Source: Octopus vulgaris
Taxonomy: Eukaryota
Direction: 5' to 3'
DNA length: 64,000 nt
Assembly: GCA_951406725.2 (NCBI GenBank)
Contig: OX597815.1
Span: 177,072,001 to 177,136,000, forward strand
In this document: positions 13,660 through 50,708 of the stretch, in pieces
Layout of the letters: every line of letters starts with the position of its first letter
Numbering within the stretch: position 1 is the first letter of the stretch
The notes under the pieces: generated by a model
Database searches by the model: none
Seen by the model: only the letters and a program-made list of their open reading frames with translations
Told to the model about the DNA's origin: nothing
Made by a program: the position numbers and the translations under genes

Positions 13660-13694
13660 ATAATTCTGGTATCATATAGCATAGAGTGAAATAG

Positions 13695-13836
13695 GTTTGA
13701 AATTCCCCCAAGACACCTGATGAAGGCTTGGAGGGTTTATCAATCGAAACGTTGGGTTAACAACAAACAAGATGAGGATAAATTTGTCACATGTAAATAA
13801 TGTACATCATTCCTCGTCTCTTAAATATAGAACTGT
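13695..13836 (+). mobile_element. 5'-truncated arm of the tRNA-head/HHR element; HHR at 13712-13758
   Basis: gacac-CTGATGA-a-ggcttg...caatc-GAAAC-GTT-gggtt; ends aaatatagaactgt like the other copies. Confidence 0.8.
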
Positions 13837-26384: not shown

Positions 26385-27908
26385 AATTAAGATAAAGAAT
26401 TTTCAAAAATTTTAAATATACTCTCCTGTTCCTGGAACAATGATCTTCCATCTCTCTGGTAGACTTGCAGGGCCATTCTTCCAAAATTCTCTTGCTCGTG
26501 ACGAAAAATGTTCCTCCAGTAATGCTCTGACCTCGTCTACAGAATTCATATTTTGTCCGACCTAGTGATTTTGGAGACTGCAGAATAGATGATAATCAGA
26601 TGGGGCAATGTACGGCGAATATGGTGGGTGGGGATCGCTTCCTATTCAAACTGCTCCAGCCTTTGGTATGTTTCCCCCGCTGTATGTGGCCGAACATCTT
26701 GAAACCAAAGATGGCCGTTTTCCTTCAAACCATTCGCAGTAGATCTCCTTTGTTATCATTTGGTTCGGGTTTGAAGTTTTAAAGTGGACTAAACCATTTA
26801 TATCCCACCAAACAGAAAACAAAAGCTTACGTGGATGAAGACCGTCTTTAGTCTAGGGCGCCGGTGTTTCTCCTTTCTCTACCCCGCGTTTTCCGTGTTT
26901 GATATTTTTATAGTAAACACATTTCTCGACACCAGTCACTGTTCAGTCCAAAAAAATAGTTAATTCGAAAGACGTGACGACAAAGAAGAGCGCACATTCA
27001 CTCTCCGTGCATAACTATACACGAAAAGGTTGTGAGCCATTGGCCCAATTTGCTGACATTTCAGATGGTACACAGGAGTCAATGAATGGTTGAATAACCA
27101 AATCCAAGTTTCTCTGCTAGTTTGTCAAGTTACGATGGACATTATTTACATTCGACAGATATTTGTCCTCATCTTGTTTGTTGTTAACAAAACGCTTCGG
27201 TTGATATACCCTCCAGCGTTCTTCAGGTGTCTTGGGGAAATTTCGAACCTGGGTTCTCATTCCTAAGGTATTTTTCGATGTAATTATTATTATTTATTAT
27301 TTTCAGGTCACTGCTTGGAATCGAACTCGGAATCATGGGGTTAGTATCCCGCACTCTTAACCACTACGCCATATGTCCGTGGGCAATTATGGAGTAAATT
27401 TTAGGGCTCCATAATTGCCCACGGGCATATGGCGTAGTGGTTAGAGTGGGGGCTACTAACCCCAAGATTCCGAGTTCGATTCCAAGCAGTGACCTGAACA
27501 ACAACAACAACAACAATGATAATAATAATATCGAAAAATACCTTAGGAATGAGAACCCAGATTCGAAATTTCCCCAAGACTCCTGAAGAAGGCTAGAGGG
27601 TATATCAGCCGAAACGTTGTGATAACAACAAACAAGACGAGGATAAATATCCGTCGAATGTAAATATAGAACTGTTGTTACGATGGGATTTTGTTCCAAC
27701 AGGTTTGCAAGATGTCCTCGTCGAGCTCTACAGAACTTTCAGGATGTGGCTCGTCTTCTATGTTGTAGAATCTGGGTCGGAATTTCTGGAATCACACTTT
27801 ACACTGGCTTACGCTTAATGTCCGATCCCCATACACTGCATCAATATTCCTCTCACTTTCAGTTGCATTGTTGCAATTGAAAAAAAACCGCATTATTTAT
27901 AAGGTGAC

Positions 27909-28652: not shown

Positions 28653-29976
28653 TAGAAGTCCATTCATCGCTCTGGAGCAATAGTTGATCGTACAGTCAGG
28701 GAAGTTTATCTATGTATCCGTTATGTTAAGCTTGATAGTTAATTCATATAGCTTTGCAGGTTTCATGTGTGTGTTTGTGAAATATCACTCATTTGAAATT
28801 AAATCTTCCTACATTGATTGAAAATTCCATTTTTCATGGTGCCGTAAATTCTGAAATTATTTTTTACTAATTATCACGAACGAAACTCTTGATAAATTAT
28901 AAATAAGCTATCGGCTTTTGTCACTATTGACTTTTCTTACTTTTGCCATGTTTTATTTTATTGTATCGTTATTGGAAATATTTCTGCTGATCTTAATGTG
29001 TGTGTGTGTTGTTTCACCTTTTTCTTCCTATTTACTCTATTATTGACGCGTGTATTCATGTGCAAACTTTTGAGTCAACATTTGACTTATTGAATTTAGA
29101 ATTAATATATAAATTGGAATTCCTACATGCCATACATATTTGAGTCAAATAACATTGAACTAATATATTTTTCGAAGATTTCGTCCTCAAATTCTTGCTC
29201 CCAAGTGATTTAGACAAATTTATGTGACGTGAGTTATTTAAGGAGAATGGATCTAATGTAATTAACATTTTTAGCCTATATTAGGATATAGCATCGAGTT
29301 TGAAACGTCTTAAACGGAATATTTTGACTTCTCCGCGAATAACGAAACGTTTGTGTGTCTGATAATTACACTTTACAGAAACGTAATTATAAATGGGAAG
29401 TAATATATGTATATCCTTAGATCTTTGGGAGACAGCAAAAAGATCTTGCTGGTTATAGAGCAAGGTAGACGAGTGAAGCTGGGAAGAGATGATAAGCGGT
29501 GATTTGGCCATCTCTACTGACCCACAAAGGGAAGTACGTTACAGTTTAGGGGTTGAAACACCCGATGATTGTTGGAATAAGTGGAAAAGAAGCATCTTCT
29601 CCTGGGCGTTATCAATATGTGCTAAACCTTTCAACTAAAACCCAGTGAATACCCAGCCTTGTTTTACATACGTGCCCCTTTCCTTTCAAGTTTCTTTCTT
29701 CTCCCACATTGCTTTTTTACACATATTTCGCTCCCGGGTTCAATTGCATCTCGAGTTAATTGAGAAGGACCATGAGAAGAAGTGTGATAGAAAATTAAAT
29801 AAGATGAAAGAAGCAATGCGAAAATTGATAAAATTAAATTGGTCTTTGTTCAGAACGATTTTTTCTTTATACGGAACTATTTTGTGAGTGTATAATATAT
29901 ATAAATTTGGTTCTTGTGTGTGAATGCCTAGGTGGACTTTTAAGTGTTTTGAAAAAATAATACAGAGATTTATATA

Positions 29977-30418
29977 CATTATTTACAATGGGCGGATGGT
30001 GTTCTCACCTTGTTTCTTGTTATCACAACGTTTCGGCTGATGTATTCTCCAGCCTTCATCAGGTATCATGGTCGTATTTCGAACCCAACCCTTTATCTGA
30101 CTAATGGGGTACTCTGTTCTCATTCCTAAAGTATGTTGCTGGTGCTATTTTTGTGGATAAGAGCGGTTTCTAAGTTCAATCACAGACAGGGACGTGAAAA
30201 ATAATATGAATAGAAAAATAACCTCAGCAACATATCTTAGGAAAAAGAGCAGTGTATTTCACAAGTCAAATAAAGGGATGAGTTCGGAATTCTACCAGAA
30301 CACTTGATGAAGGCTGGAAAGTACATCAGCCGAAACGTTGCGATAACAAAAAAGATGAGGGCACCTGTCCGTCCATTCTAATTAATGTGCATAATTCCTC
30401 GTTTCAAAAATATAGAAT
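29977..30418. mobile_element. Second palindromic HHR element (diverged subfamily), 12-bp TSD
   Basis: TSD gagatttatata at 29965-29976 and 30419-30430; HHR 30022-30067 (-) with intact core; HHR 30299-30344 (+, C3U); same termini as 27139-27676. Confidence 0.85.
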
Positions 30419-31645
30419 GAGATTTATATATCCGTATACATGTGAAGTATGTACGTATGTGTCTCTTAAGGTAGAGCGTGGACTAAGATGGATTTGTATT
30501 AGTGTTTTCGTGGTGGGATATAATCGTTTGTCAAATCAATATACTATTGTGTGTGTGTGTATGTGATATTGACATCCCATAACATCTTCTCCTCCCCTGC
30601 ACTCCCCTACATATTGCTTATTGTTAACACCCGCAAACTTGCTCCTTAAAATACATGACCCACACATTTTCTTTTCTTCCAAAAGCTTTTGTTTCACCAA
30701 GTCGCTCTCTGCGTTTACGTCTTCGGCTGCACATTAAATATAATATAATATATAAACGATATTTTTACGTACATGTGCGCACACTCACACATATACATGA
30801 ACACAAACAAACATACACACACAAACAAGCATGCACCCAAGCATACACACAGGACACACATACACATGCACACCCACCACACACGCGCACACACACGCGC
30901 GCACAAACACACACACATACACACACAGACTGGAAATTTCTAACAGACTACCTACTTCCAATAATTTTTTGAAACATTTGCGAAAGCATAAAAGAGTCTT
31001 GTTTGATTATTTACTAATCTGTTTCCTTGATAAATAAATATTGCTTCTTTCTTTCAAATTTAAGTTCACCTATAGCATATTTTCCCCTCCATTTATCATA
31101 TTCTGCGTCCTCTGTAATCTTGTTTGCGTTGTTGCCAATTTGCATCAATGAGCAAATCAACGCTCTGTGGTTGCAAGTACAGAACCACACAGTAACACAC
31201 ACCTACGCATCTACATCCATCAAAGCTTTCAGATGGACATGTATGTTTTTCTAATAGAGAGTTAATGCACGAATGCATATGAATGAATATCGATATATAA
31301 CTATATATGAACGGTGAAAATATTTAGTAATACTGAAGCGAAATGATTTTGCGGAACGTTGAACAATATCGATTTCTTTTGATTAAGAATGAGACGAAAC
31401 TTTAAGACAAAACTGAAAGGACATAGATGAATGAGGCGGTTCGATGTTAAACAACAAGCTGAGATGAATGCTCTGTAGTTCGTTACATTTCAGCAACACT
31501 GCGTTGCACTGTTGTACACCACAACCATTCACAAAAGTCACAGGTAACATATTTCTGAAAACTGTGGAAGCTCAGAGGCCTACAGAACTCGACAGATTGC
31601 TAAACTGAATTTCTCATTTCGAAGCATACATTTGATACATACATA

Positions 31646-31875
31646 CACGTTGCCCAACGTCGTCTGCATTGATGGCAGCGTTCCTGGAACTCCCTCTTTG
31701 GGACAGCGATGCATATGTGGTGCACCTTGTCCACCATCACTAGGTCCAGTCTGTTATGCTCTAGCACCTGATCTGTTTGGATTGCGAAATCACAAACAAT
31801 TTTACTACTCTCCGATTCCGCAACTCTGCGCTTTTTTGCTCATACCACGTCTTGCCTATCTCGTGCCTCAAAATT
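31646..31875 (-). mobile_element. R4/Dong LINE fragment, inverted copy of 32884-33113
   Basis: Near-identical reverse complement; ORF pairs 31632+ and 32864- share LPNVVCIDGSVPGTPSLGQ. Confidence 0.85.
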
Positions 31876-31877
31876 AC

Positions 31878-31910
<33 letters not shown>

Positions 31911-32434
31911 CATGCACACATACATGCATAGTTACGCGCGCACACACACACACACACACACATATATATAAACTAATACATTAGTTTGTTGTCTACACCA
32001 CCTGTCTTCGTCTTTTCTATTTTGTGAATTCTTCCCCTATATATGTATGTAGGTAAGTATTATTATATCGTGTCATATATATGTATGTGTGTGTGTGACT
32101 GCATGTTTGCATGTGAGTAGTTGAACATAAATATATTATAGAAATTATAGTAACAGGGATCAACATAGTATTTTTCAATGAATTCAGGATGAATATAGCA
32201 TGTGAGTGACCGATATTAGGGTAAACTAAGGGAAAAGTGAATAGTAGTAGTAATGGTAGTAATAATAATCATGTAGATCATAGATATAGCATGCCCAGCT
32301 GACAACAATGTATGTATTACATCTATCCCGTAACTGCGACAGTCATAGAAATTTTAAGATTAAAATGATCAACTACGAGAGACAAAAGTAGACTACTTTA
32401 TAAACTTCCAAATCTGAAATAGTTAACACCATTA

Positions 32435-32829
32435 CAAATAAAGAAAACAAACTATGCTGTATCATAGACATAGCATGCCCATCTGACAACAAGGTATGCG
32501 ATAAGGAAGAGAGAAAAGTCGAGAGATATGACAGGTTAGCTTGGGAAGTTAAGCAATTGTGGTCGTTGAAAAAGGTAGCAGTAGTACCAATAATTGTCGG
32601 AGCCCTGGGAACAGTGAGCAAAATTCTCGAGAAGTACGTGGAACAAATAGAAGCTGCAATAAGGGTGGAGCACTTGCAGAAAATAGCACTGCTTGGAACC
32701 GCACGAATTATCTGGAAGGTGCTCGAAAAATAAGAGGTGTCACTTTAGTTCACTGGTAGTGAAAAGCTGATACCGTAGTACATCTCTAGCGTTAGAAGCT
32801 GTGCAAAGGCAATGACAATAATAATAATA
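32435..32829 (+). mobile_element. R4/Dong-clade LINE 3' end: restriction-like endonuclease, 3'UTR, (AAT)n
   Basis: CIIDIACPSDNKVCDKEERKVERYDRLAWEVKQLWSLKKVAVVPIIVGALG...LQKIALLGTARIIWKVLEK*. Confidence 0.92.
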
Positions 32830-32834
32830 CTGTA

Positions 32835-33113
32835 GTGGCAACATGATCGGGTAGCGAAAGTGTTTACATTGGAAACTGTGCGAAATTTTGAGGCACGAAA
32901 TAGGCAAGGCGTGGTATGAGCAAAAAAGCGCAGAGTTGCGGAGTCGGTGAGTAGTAAAATTGTTTGTGATTTCCCAATCCAAACAGATCAGGTGCTAGAG
33001 CATAACAGACTGGACCTAGTAATGGTGGACAAGATGCACGACATATGCATTGCTGTCCCAAAGAGGGAGTTCCAGGAACGCTGCCATCAATGCAAACGAC
33101 GTTGGGTAACGCG
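32835..33113 (+). mobile_element. R4/Dong LINE internal fragment (region entering the REL domain)
   Basis: HDRVAK..HWKLC...WYEQK...KIVCDFPIQTDQVLEHNRLDLVMVDK. Confidence 0.85.
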
Positions 33114-36100
33114 TCAGGCTTGTGATGGAGACTGTATTCAAATACGTAAGCATGCACACACATCATACATACACACACACACACACACACACAACATACA
33201 TACACACAGACAGCTGAAATGTGTGTGTGTTAGTAAACGATGGCCTTATACACATACCGCCGGTAGGCTTGATTCCATTTCCGTCTGCCAAATTTTTGTC
33301 GACCTGATTCAGTAGAAGACACTTGTCCAGGGTATTATGAAGCGGAACCGTCACCGAAACTATGTGGCTAAGAAGCAAAACACTCAACGATGTAACTATG
33401 GCGACGTCTAGCAGTCAGATCGCTCAACTATTGGTCGAGGTTAATCATATAACCTTGTTTGACTTTCTTGATTAATTCTATATTGTTGTAATGGAAGTGT
33501 CTAAAATATACACAACTTCAAAAATGATCATACTTGTGTGTGTGATAATATAAGACGTATGAGTAACCAGAAACAGAGACATGGAAAAGCTTCAAGTTGA
33601 ATGTGTATGCGTGTGTGTGTGTGCGTCTGCGTGTGTGAGTAACGGGAGCGTTTATATATAGTAATATGGATATATCTGTTTATCGATGCTTGATTGATAT
33701 ATATATATCCATAACGGAGTCGTTTCAAAAAATAAAAGCGTCGAGTTTTTAAATATAGTTTTAATGTATTTAGCTTTACATTTATCTAATTGAATTTCCT
33801 TGTAGTTACTTATCTTTGAGATCTTTCACGTCAAAGTATAAAAAATATCTTCTTAATATCAGGAAAATACGTTTGTAATAAGAAATAGAAGAATGGTTGA
33901 GTAAATAACTAATTATTTGAACGTCAGATGCTTTATATTGGGTCTTTGAAAACATGATAGCAGAGTTAGTTGCTCGGCAACTAACAGTGAAATAATGACT
34001 TATTACGTTAGTACAAACCACAATTTTCTAGTGAAGATGTATAATTGGCTGAATTGACTGCAGTCCAGGTCTGATTTTTCTGTTATCGTCTCGGGGGAAT
34101 GAAAGATATAATCAATCCATAAAGTATTATTGGAGTTCAGTGTAGCGACGTAAGACTGGTTGTTTCACTATATTCCCCTGCGTTGTTCACACTAGTTTCC
34201 AAAAGAATGGAGTCAGGAATATAAATGTAGGACATATATCCGTCCATAGCAAAGTTCTGATGTTTCAACGAATATAACATTACATCGTTTCATACATAAC
34301 GAGCTTTATCACCATACACTGCTCCTTTGGTGCCTTTAGTCTTAAACATTCTGGTGAAAATATTCGGATAAGAAGATGTTCACGCTTAGGGTAAGGAAAA
34401 TATGTTTATTCTGAAGTTGGCGTGACTTGTCAGCCTGTTACTGACTGTTAGATGATATTGGTGAGAAGAATATTTGAACAGTGGAAGGATGATGTTTTGC
34501 ATTTGTGAGTATCGCATCTTTTCGAAGATGTGCTCGACTACATTCCTCTACTTCAAGTAGTAGGGTAAGAATTAAAAGATTCGATCTTCTATTTCCACCA
34601 GGTTGGGCAACTAGATAATGTTTCTAGATGTTCAAATTCTTAGGTAAGACTTCAGAAGTCTGTCCACACATAGGGTGCATTGTTCTAAATCCTGATCTCT
34701 GATATCTCGTAGTTGACTCTCCTTTACAACAGCGAACGGATTTTCGTGGGATGGGTAGAGAAGAGACTAGAAGCGAAGATCAATATAAACTATGGTTAGA
34801 GTCAGTCAAAACAAAAGTAATTTAGAATTTACGAATCCCTATCTGGAGAAAAAATGAAAACTGTCATCGAGAACCCTGCTCCTTCCGAATTGTAAATCAA
34901 TAGAATATAATTCCTTCTGCTGTCGTCCCCAAGCTCTGTGCTAGTGCCTCAAAACTGACATGGCTCCGAGAAAGTCATTTAAAATTACTAACGTCCCAAT
35001 CAAATTATTTTCTACAGTGGAAGAGATGGTCATCGAAATACAGGCATTGTAATACACTTCTATGCCTCCCACAAACGGAAACCAACTCCAAAATACACTG
35101 ACAAAACAAATTCAGAATCTACTGACCGAGTCATTTTCTATGATCAACTACCTACGAGAAATATTAGGCTCACTGGTACGTTGATAATAAAAGCTAAAAA
35201 AAAGCAATTAAACATTTACCCATACATTATTGGTTTTGCACCTCGTTAGTTTTGTTCAGTGCAGAACGGATGCAAAAGTCTGCCTGCTGTAAAACATACC
35301 AACTTCAAAATTTGCGATCGTTTTAATCGGTCGATTAGCTTTTTGTCACTCTGACAGGAAATTCTGTTTCACAGAAAATACCTGTCTCATTTACGTGGAT
35401 GAATCAACACATGGTACCCATTCTCTCCCTTCACACACAGCCATTTTATACTCCCTTCCCACCTACGTTTTGCCTTCTGGCTTCGGCCTATAGATATTCA
35501 ACCTAAACATCTTGCGCATCAATATTAACAACCGCGGAGAGATTAAACTCTCTCTCTATTATCTTTAAAACTCTCTTTTCTAACTCGCGGTTTTTCTAAT
35601 ATATTCTTTTAACCCCTGCATTCACCAAACATCTGCAGATTCTGCAACGTTTCTGCATCTGTATCTTGCCCTCTCTTTAGGATCTAATTGTTGTCATTTC
35701 TCGGGTTAGAGGCGGAAATTCTCACATTATGTATCATTTCATACGCTTATAAACTCTGAAATACATAGTAGGAGAAACCCTCCAGGCTCAGATGCTGACT
35801 TAATGTTTAAAAACTCTGTATACGACTGCGACTGTGGCGGTAACAGTCGTAATATACTTGGCATCAATATAAACCTAGATTCTTTCTTTAATATTGATAC
35901 ATCCAACCTAAGTTACCTGCGTATGATTTAAATTTGTCTCTCAAGATATTGGTCTTTGACTTACCGTGTCTCAATCATTGTTAAAGAAAAATTCTAATGA
36001 GAGCTTATATGGTAGAGTTACATATTGCATATTGGGGAATCTTTGCTAAGTTTTTTTTTAGCCTAATAATACCAAACTGGGCACGCACTTCATATTGAGC

Positions 36101-42764: not shown

Positions 42765-43453
42765 GTATAAGGGCTTAGTAAAATAAATTACTTTGCCACA
42801 TACTGAACTCATTAGAAATAGTAGCTAAAGAAATTTCTTTAGCTATTTCTAATACTTAAAGAAGATCTCTCTCAGATAGTGTTTGCTCAAACCAACTCAC
42901 GAAGGTATGGGGGAAAAACATTAAAAAATCAAGTGCAAAGGTTATTTGAGAACGTACGTTTCTAGATTAGTCAAATCGACATTTCTTTCGTCAGCTCAGA
43001 ACTCCTTGATTCGGATTTGGGAACACTGAAAGTGGGAGCATACCCTTTTGGCTTCTTATCACCTCTAGAATTCCGCTCGAACTAAAAGTGCTATCAAATT
43101 CAAAATATGCAAGCGAAGAATTTCTGCTCTCCTCTTTCCACCAGCGTGGGTTAAAATTGACAAACACTATGTTTTATCGGTGAAAACCGAAGCATTAAAC
43201 AGAGAGAAATGAATTATAATTTCAACAATTGAGGGTAAAATTAATTAATTATTAATCAATTTCACCAAGTATTCAGTATGTAAAGGGACCATTTTAGGCG
43301 AATTCAAAATATTACATTATGTATAAGGGCTTAGTAAAATAAATTACTTTGCCACATACTGAACTCATTAGAAATAGCAGCTAAAGAAATTTCTTTAGCT
43401 ATTTCTAATACTTAAAGAAGATCTCTCTCAGATAGTGTTTGCTCAAACCAACT
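42760..43453 (-). mobile_element. 556-bp unit with ~137-bp terminal direct repeat and an internal HHR (42947-42998)
   Basis: 42760-42897 repeated at 43316-43453; minus tgag-CTGACGA-stemII-GAAAC-gtac-GTT-ctca; (TA)n on both flanks. Confidence 0.8.
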
Positions 43454-49697: not shown

Positions 49698-50434
49698 TAA
49701 AATTCGGACGCGCGGCCGTGGTACCGACAATCTGAGTTCTAGTTGTTTTGAAGCAATTTTAACTTTCGTCCTCAGATAATCCGATTTATGCTATGAAGTG
49801 TATAATTAATTAGATAAATAAATAACCCTGTCTAAGTCATCAAATTTCACCGATTCTTCACAGCAAAGAAGTATTTAAAAAGTCTTCTCATTCCGCATCG
49901 TGGTCTCAGTGGACAAAATGGAAAAGTCCTCGTCCCAGAGGATTGCGAGGGAGATGCGTTTGAACAGCCCATCTAACTCACAGTGCTAGCATTTGCGGAC
50001 AGCCATCTCCGCCGCGAGGCAATTAGCAGAGATGGGATCCAAGAGCCGAGACTCCACTTACACAGGTTCGACCACAAACCTGTCAGAGAGCGTTCGATAC
50101 TTGGACAGTGGCCGATGAGATAAAGTATCAGTCAAATAGGAAAACTGGTAGGAATCATTAGAAATTTTCCCCTCACATCTTCATTAGACATGATTAAGAA
50201 ATGGAAGCATAGAAGCACGTAGATATCGAAAATCACATCGTCAATGATATTATTCGATGTTATTTTTAATTCTTGAGCTCCGAGAACTTCCTGAAAAATG
50301 CTTCACCTGCTTCCAGGATATCGAAACGTTTTTCTCTTTTTTTAATATGCATATTAGAATAGACGAAATAGGAAAATATAACTGGAGACAAATAATGTAT
50401 GGAGATTTCATACAATTTGTAGAGTAGATTATGC

Positions 50435-50708
50435 GGGCATATGGCGTAGCGGTTAAGAGCGCGGGCTACTAACCCCAAGATTCCGAGTTCGATTCCAAGC
50501 AGTGATCTGACTAATAATAAATAATAACATCGAAAATACCTTAGGAAGTAGAACCCAGGTTCAAAATTTCCCCAAGACACCTGATGAAGGCTGGAGGGGT
50601 GTATCAGCCGAAACGATGTGTTAACAAACAAGATAAGGACAAATATCGGTCAAATGTAAATAATGTAAATAACGTACATAATTCCTCATCTCTTAAATAT
50701 AGAACTGT
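50435..50708 (+). mobile_element. Solo arm of the tRNA-head/HHR element; HHR at 50576-50622
   Basis: gggcatatggcgtagcggttaagagc..gagttcgattcc..gacac-CTGATGA-a-ggctg..cagcc-GAAAC-GAT-gtgtt (cleavage triplet mutated). Confidence 0.85.

Follow-up and report, generated by a model that had tools for sequence, protein, structure and literature searches.

The window analysed here is a stretch of 64,000 nucleotides from Octopus vulgaris (contig OX597815.1, positions 177,072,001 to 177,136,000). An insertion at 29977-30418 of this window is flanked by a TSD of 12 bp (29965-29976 on the left, 30419-30430 on the right, both on the plus strand), which is exact, as the original prediction held; the 12-mer occurs at these two places only in the whole window, and mismatched-flank controls yield a TSD of at least 8 bp in only 16 of 408 (subfamily A) and 10 of 388 (subfamily B) cases (3-4%). 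When the insertion is aligned with its own reverse complement, 304 of 401 columns are identical, the unpaired middle included, and the arms are therefore inverted copies. The left arm (29977-30152, minus strand) is an inverted, 5'-truncated copy of a repeat unit, the pLTR, with 91% identity to the consensus of the B2 sublineage; it spans positions ~120-298 of the subfamily B pLTR, and its terminus is the inner, untailed end. The right arm (30153-30418, plus strand) is likewise 5'-truncated and is 88% identical to the B2 consensus, covering pLTR positions 44-329 with the tail included. This Penelope 'tail' of 31 nt (30388-30418, plus strand), delimited by alignment, is absent from the left arm and constitutes the asymmetry of the two ends; full-length copies have it in one reading frame with the beginning of the ORF. 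The TSD at 29965-29976 looks like the start of the antisense tail, hinting at priming through partial pairing. Alignment to the consensus also identifies a remnant of a tRNA-derived segment at 30153-30192 (plus strand), consisting of the end of an A box, a 17-nt deletion and a B-box-like motif (30174-30182). What had been described as a tRNA-like centre of the insertion is really the 5'-truncated start of the right arm (pLTR position 44 on, with the 17-nt deletion), and the left arm stops near pLTR position 120, short of this segment.

A motif scan finds a hammerhead motif in each arm. The minus-strand motif (30024-30065) is a minimal type I hammerhead with an intact core (30027-30062), in agreement with the first reading of this DNA, and has an extra A between positions 9 and 10.1, a palindromic CG at stem III, and a stem I of 3 bp including one U-G pair. 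The plus-strand motif (30301-30342, core 30304-30339) is damaged, with a C3U change and a broken stem I. All elements of the minimal type I motif (CUGANGA, GAAA, a base between 9 and 10.1, G10.1-C11.1, palindromic 15.2-16.2, NUH) are present in the minus-strand arm and in the consensuses of both subfamilies; the plus-strand arm departs from them at C3. Neither arm has any change in GGCTG/CAGCC or GAAACGTT, and the loops read as first quoted; the arms of the sister insertion described below do show changes in hammerhead stem and core. Rfam searches of the window, five loci and one head region, at gathering or E-value thresholds, returned neither a hammerhead nor a tRNA; the hammerhead label thus rests on the motif match and the tRNA label on alignment to host tRNAs. 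The minus strand at 42955-42994 contains another hammerhead-like motif, which is not related to these and whose stem II differs.

The sister insertion at 27139-27676 is an inverted pair of the younger subfamily A, with arms 93-95% identical to the A consensus and a TSD of 10 bp (27129-27138 and 27677-27686). Both of its arms extend beyond the tRNA-like segment into the 3' UTR spacer. The two end motifs reported as shared do occur in both insertions, but the right ends are alike only at the tip. The tail of the sister copy keeps its last ~14 nt after an internal loss of ~31 nt; this loss, which falls between two AAAT words close to the end with the tail, is the same in the window (27660-27676) and at locus L036, and its presence in two independent insertions suggests a recurrent jump or deletion. 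Solo subfamily A copies with tails are found at 50434-50706, beginning near the 5' end of the tRNA-like segment, and at 13693-13835. Another inverted pair in the window (31645-33114, 238-nt arms, 94% complementary) represents a second family with inverted truncated ends; the fragments encoded by the arms and middle of this pair presumably resemble the C-terminal part of a non-LTR element, where the restriction-like endonuclease lies.

The insertion at 29977 belongs to an older and rarer subfamily, B, and that at 27139 to subfamily A. At non-CpG sites the arms differ from their own consensus by 8.1% (B) and 5.0% (A), and a B-specific 19-mer has 123 exact matches in the genome against 3816 for an A-specific 26-mer. 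Genome searches with the two elements gave 4340 and 4867 candidates, of which 40 were scored from each, and about four insertions turned up in 400 kb of DNA picked arbitrarily (genome 2.8 Gb), which suggests a family of some 10^4 copies. Four loci (L164, L223, L227 and L385) form an intermediate sublineage with an A-like head and a B-like body, suggesting a succession from B to C to A. Two groups of loci (L010, L012, L015 and L266, L267, L269) are single insertions multiplied through local duplication of host DNA. Contigs of four other organisms hold the family, and in three of these the end of the ORF and the tRNA-like segment are bridged on single contigs.

The repeat unit is the 3' repeat (pLTR) of an autonomous Penelope-like element (PLE) with an RT-endonuclease frame, as follows from its continuity with the ORF, from copies in the order pLTR-ORF-pLTR (L363, L369, L379, L385) and from the tail being in frame with the ORF start. 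Upstream extension into a common coding sequence was found at 6 of 29 distinct loci from a search with the 27139 arm, and anchored arms run upstream into ORF sequence in 20/88 B and 11/88 A copies. Conversely, 26 of 30 loci chosen by RT/thumb DNA alone continue into the pLTR unit ~300 nt on, a protein-coding origin that the original prediction had missed, and at 21 of the 30 the A-box region follows on directly from the end of the ORF. Several copies have an inverted pLTR in front. The unit follows the stop codon of the RT-endonuclease ORF and is not a separate fold-back SINE.

The majority ORF, built from ~50 copies, is a single open frame of 772 aa with YVDD and an endonuclease-type motif (YSIPCSC..YKGET), and it has no CxxC or CxxxC linker between RT and EN. 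A zinc-finger-like CxxC linker at this place is a feature of Neptune and Nematis, and is present in L107, a different PLE family of the same genome. The present element is most likely of the Penelope/Poseidon type, judged from its predicted protein. Its product has 55 longer homologs, most with RVT_1, PF26215 and PF28514, the last occupying their endonuclease-motif region, and it resembles Anolis proteins; natural ORF fragments match RVT_1, and the PDB matches are RTs, TERT among them. The GIY-YIG label for the putative C-terminal nuclease domain is weakly supported: the bipartite motif stands at the expected C-terminal place and aligns weakly to a Pfam-positive GIY-YIG domain (E 0.044), and PF01541 is found in just 2 out of 16 aligned proteins, at an E value of 0.017 at best. 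A genome search with the Pfam GIY-YIG model matched another, Neptune-like family without the present pLTR. That Neptune-like PLE family (L107, L112 and further places) is young, has many open frames of 781 aa, is lodged in TA repeats and was apparently active recently.

Copies of each subfamily were sampled as 90 loci from the first 100 word matches per list (6 matches skipped and 4 pairs merged for B, 7 skipped and 3 pairs merged for A); removal of two overlapping loci per sample left 88 A copies, all from a single contig, and 88 B copies. An inverted partner is present in 127 of the 176 copies (61/88 A, 66/88 B), a proportion raised by anchoring on a pLTR word, which favours two-armed copies in both samples. 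The paired form had been put forward as a reproducible product of the mechanism, and these counts bear this out, but it is already a published property of PLEs; the accompanying term 'fold-back' is probably wrong, since junctions vary nearly from copy to copy and either arm may be the longer.

The ends of the pairs follow a strict pattern. The 52 A pairs with both ends assignable comprise 48 with one tailed and one short end, 4 with two short ends and none with two tails (48/2/0 after correction for one insertion duplicated as three loci), and the corresponding figures for the 50 B pairs are 46, 4 and 0. With duplicates removed, 94 of 100 two-ended pairs are one-tailed, 6 are short at both ends and none is two-tailed. 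Independent choice of ends would give about half tailed/short pairs (p ~5e-11 for A, ~2e-10 for B). A TSD of at least 8 bp flanks 64 of the 102 two-ended pairs (A 36/52, B 28/50), well above the mismatched-flank controls; absence of TSDs from most palindromic copies, named at the outset as an observation that would count against the first interpretation, is not what is found. Solo copies have a TSD in 5 of 48 cases only; untailed solos with a TSD exist nevertheless (L289, L297, L191). TSDs are 9-18 bp long, mostly 11-14 (mode 12-13), and 76% AT, and the base adjoining the untailed end is T in 39 of 58.

The inner ends of the arms are much less regular. The tailed arm reaches further 5' in 22 A pairs and less far in 18, and the numbers for B are 18 and 27; over the 85 informative pairs it is longer than its partner 40 times and shorter 45 times. 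The position of the junction differs in almost every copy, in both arms, mostly with an overlap or difference of a few bases. The two arms of one insertion agree at lineage-specific sites (A site 192 in 38/39 pairs, B site 139 in 32/34), with weaker agreement at B sites 161 (24/33) and 266 (32/46); the insertion at 29977 is itself discordant at site 161. At CpG sites, the arms of one insertion do not agree.

In vitro, the Poseidon protein of the anole cleaves both strands, extends them and prefers AT-rich sites; it initiates RT at two positions, one on either side of the tail, and a dimer has been predicted (PMC11167929). How PLEs come by inverted repeats and by a tail at one end is treated as an open question in PMC8557442 and PMC11167929. 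Our favoured reading, to which we would give a probability of about 0.72, is that an autonomous PLE inserted at 29977-30418 as a 5'-truncated copy, now decayed, and that its two head-to-head pLTRs were made by two-ended priming. The RT-endonuclease of the element would cut both strands of an AT-rich target ~12 bp apart, and two cDNAs would be primed from two predicted start sites, separated by 31 nt, with each site serving a single cDNA. The template would be the same or a sibling RNA, with one cDNA begun from the inner site and one from the outer, and the 3' ends of both cDNAs would then be joined. Two-ended priming by a dimer with subsequent end-joining of cDNAs is the likely course of events that we infer from these insertions, no intermediate having been observed.

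A snap-back origin, in which a cDNA folds at its own 3' end and primes its own second arm, with later deletions at the centre making the arms unequal, is unlikely, though possible. Self-priming has been proposed for PLE inversions on the grounds of palindromic junctions (PMC3846280), and its signature is present here: some junctions retain a short perfect palindrome (L035, L036, L039, L258, L309) at a built-in hairpin (pLTR 23-34) just 5' of the tRNA-like segment. The lineage-specific bases common to both arms are equally compatible with snap-back, and arms that seem to have independent 5' ends could also result from deletions that removed palindrome centres after insertion. Against this, in those 45 of the 85 informative pairs where the untailed arm is the longer, it cannot simply have been copied from the tailed one. 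Furthermore, untailed first strands do occur, as in the three untailed solos with a TSD, yet pairs short at both ends make up just 6 of 100. The pair counts therefore fit two-ended priming better than snap-back.

The hammerhead had been taken as under selection between subfamilies, and the comparison of consensus core and stems with loop that was to decide this gives 0 of 32 differences between A and B in core and stems, 2 of 10 in loop II and 27 of 192 in the rest (core and stems against the rest, p=0.012; against loop II, p=0.052). At the level of consensuses the claim is thus moderately supported (0/32 versus 27/192), but copy 29977 does not itself show it, and selection would have acted on source elements rather than on this copy. 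In A copies the core and stems have changed as fast as the background (p=0.37 against the rest), though less than the loop (p=0.005). In B copies their level of change, 5.2%, is below the 7.8% of the rest, which we read as sublineage differences accumulating outside the motif. CpG decay in the motif, including the CpGs of G12 and stem III, is 18% against 21% elsewhere in A, and 31% against 36% in B. An intact core is found in 14 of 124 B arms, with stems that can also pair in 4 of 124; the minus-strand arm of 29977 ranks with the better preserved ones; it was, however, selected post hoc and is not special. As a single copy, 29977 is an ordinary dead insertion for its class.

Minimal PLE hammerheads form opposite-strand pairs 100-700 bp apart and have low, dimer-dependent activity (PMC4209133). 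The motifs described here share with these metazoan minimal type I motifs the lack of loop III, the palindromic 15.2-16.2, the extra base between 9 and 10.1, the G10.1-C11.1 pair and the short stem I, and differ from those described in that paper in their predicted cleavage triplet, GUU. MFE folds of the monomer recover stem II and not the full hammerhead (z -0.7 to -1.9), as is expected of the dimer type. The predicted hammerhead is likely to be a standard dimer-type PLE motif that is inert in copy 29977, where read-through RNA of the palindrome would pair the sense motif with its antisense copy. Among 5' ends, no pile-up is seen at the predicted cut in A, and those of B are few there (4/15 within 4 nt).

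The tRNA-derived segment is part of the 3' UTR of the autonomous element. Motifs like A and B boxes lie ~30 nt behind the stop codon and are intact in both subfamily consensuses. Compared with 30 host tRNA loci of six amino-acid types, the consensus segment matches tRNA-Arg(TCT) best, with a score of 65 against a maximum of 51 in 300 shuffles; ARAGORN reports nothing in this segment at default settings and only implausible folds at relaxed ones. The 5' ends of A copies are concentrated at pLTR 20-35 (0.056 per nt versus 0.002 and 0.003 either side), and B copies have a weaker excess there (0.025 versus 0.007 and 0.003). Going by these motifs and ends, the segment is likely to be an internal Pol III promoter that gives rise to short SINE-like templates, mainly in subfamily A; in copy 29977, the putative promoter would have been lost, as the segment is cut and deleted. 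Alternatively, the pile-up of 5' ends could be due to the hairpin 5' of the tRNA segment, with no Pol III transcript involved. There is no TTTT on the sense strand of ORF and pLTR (0/12 ORF T-runs; p=0.03 by synonymous shuffle, 0.06-0.12 by Markov model), against 7 in 1.8 kb of the Neptune-like control, a difference that came to notice post hoc and amounts to no more than a hint. Three raw RNA runs, all of one study and possibly of a species other than the host, contain family reads equally in both directions and show no pile-ups of starts or ends.

The short copies might instead belong to an independent, non-autonomous, tRNA-headed SINE or retrozyme with master copies of its own that borrows the Penelope enzymes. 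Such a family would account for the intact A and B boxes, for the depth profile, in which short copies are far commoner than ORF copies, and for the ends of those A arms that reach the tRNA head, 75 of 94 of which lie within pLTR 12-50. We nonetheless consider it very improbable. The tRNA segment follows the ORF stop by ~30 nt in the 21 of 30 RT-selected loci mentioned above, and many arms, both of those at 27139 included, pass the head into the UTR spacer or ORF. Moreover, three lineage variants are similarly frequent in head-start and ORF-linked copies (p 0.39-1.0), and there is consequently no sign of a separate SINE lineage. Considered as a tRNA-derived SINE, the unit has the appropriate head, but it is not a distinct non-autonomous family, being the 3' UTR of an autonomous element and having no private variants. 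Non-LTR retrozymes are head-to-tail tandems with a hammerhead in each unit, while inverted pairs or solos make up nearly all of the loci sampled here. A palindrome formed by chance, or a DNA transposon of the MITE type with long terminal inverted repeats, would explain inverted arms within a TSD and is hardly tenable, given the variable TSD length (9-18), unequal ends, variable centres and solo copies; its refutation comes from the direct continuity with the RT ORF together with the pair architecture.

A more far-reaching interpretation of the tRNA segment, which we put forward tentatively and regard as possible rather than probable, is that a Pol III promoter captured from tRNA-Arg is used both for short SINE-like RNAs and for a transcript of the whole unit, with the one-tail rule reflecting an asymmetric dimer. 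The short RNAs would come from the element's own 3' end, so that a SINE would be born inside its partner. An upstream pLTR would transcribe the whole 2.6-kb unit, the sense strand of which is without a TTTT terminator, and the hammerhead would release the ORF RNA just ahead of its start codon. The strict one-tail rule would then be the trace left in the genome by an asymmetric dimer that primes two cDNAs on a single RNA. A search for a relative predating the capture found none without the tRNA segment among matches to a distant protein query, which returned the same lineage only; the search was strict, and absence is not implied.

Most of the architecture described here is established for PLEs. 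Inverted pLTRs, a one-sided tail of ~31 nt and a TSD are described features (PMC3846280, PMC8557442), and the single ORF with RT and putative C-terminal endonuclease and the pLTR correspond to Adineta Pen2a (PMC3846280), anole Poseidon PAc (PMC11167929) and the elements of PMC8557442. As in EN+ PLEs, an inverted, 5'-truncated pLTR is adjacent, the TSD encloses the whole unit, targets are AT-rich, and an optional 31-bp tail at one end overlaps the ORF start; an inverted pLTR upstream and an optional tail of 30-40 bp with variable TSD, both features of this group, are found here. Two points differ. The one-tail rule, for which the EN+ PLE literature says 'often', is near-absolute by count (94/100, none two-tailed), and upstream of its hammerhead the pLTR contains an (AAT/AAC)n tract and an A/B-box segment of tRNA origin. 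The inverted-pair layout with hammerheads being already known, the tRNA segment in the pLTR is the unusual part. A full-text literature search found no description of a tRNA segment in the pLTR of an autonomous PLE; Repbase, Dfam and supplements may hold the family, as may the 1994 octopus SINE and 2017 dimer-hammerhead work. Passages from PMC13282606 and PMC6685494 make no mention of one.

Related combinations are known from non-coding repeats. The schistosome Sm-alpha/Sj-alpha repeats have a Pol III promoter and a hammerhead (PMC6765202), and retrozymes have been argued to derive from pLTRs (bioRxiv 10.64898/2026.07.22.740005). Like the Sm-alpha/Sj-alpha repeats and animal non-LTR retrozymes, the present unit has a putative Pol III-type promoter followed by a hammerhead motif, and a link to PLE pLTRs; unlike these non-coding head-to-tail tandems, it is a cassette within a protein-coding element, and its copies are dispersed as head-to-head pairs or solos. 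A Pol III promoter derived from a small RNA is also found in the terminal repeats of the Helenus, Ajax and Cassandra TRIMs, which in contrast are non-autonomous LTR elements with fixed TSDs of 4-5 bp (PMC10886601), whereas the present element is an autonomous PLE.

The family thus provides thousands of natural insertion products, and 94 one-tailed pairs in 100, with no two-tailed pair, constrain models of how PLE inverted repeats and tails arise. If the tRNA-derived segment is indeed a Pol III promoter inside an autonomous PLE, it would show a route from a PLE to a SINE or retrozyme, and would explain why such repeats are mis-annotated as SINEs or MITEs.
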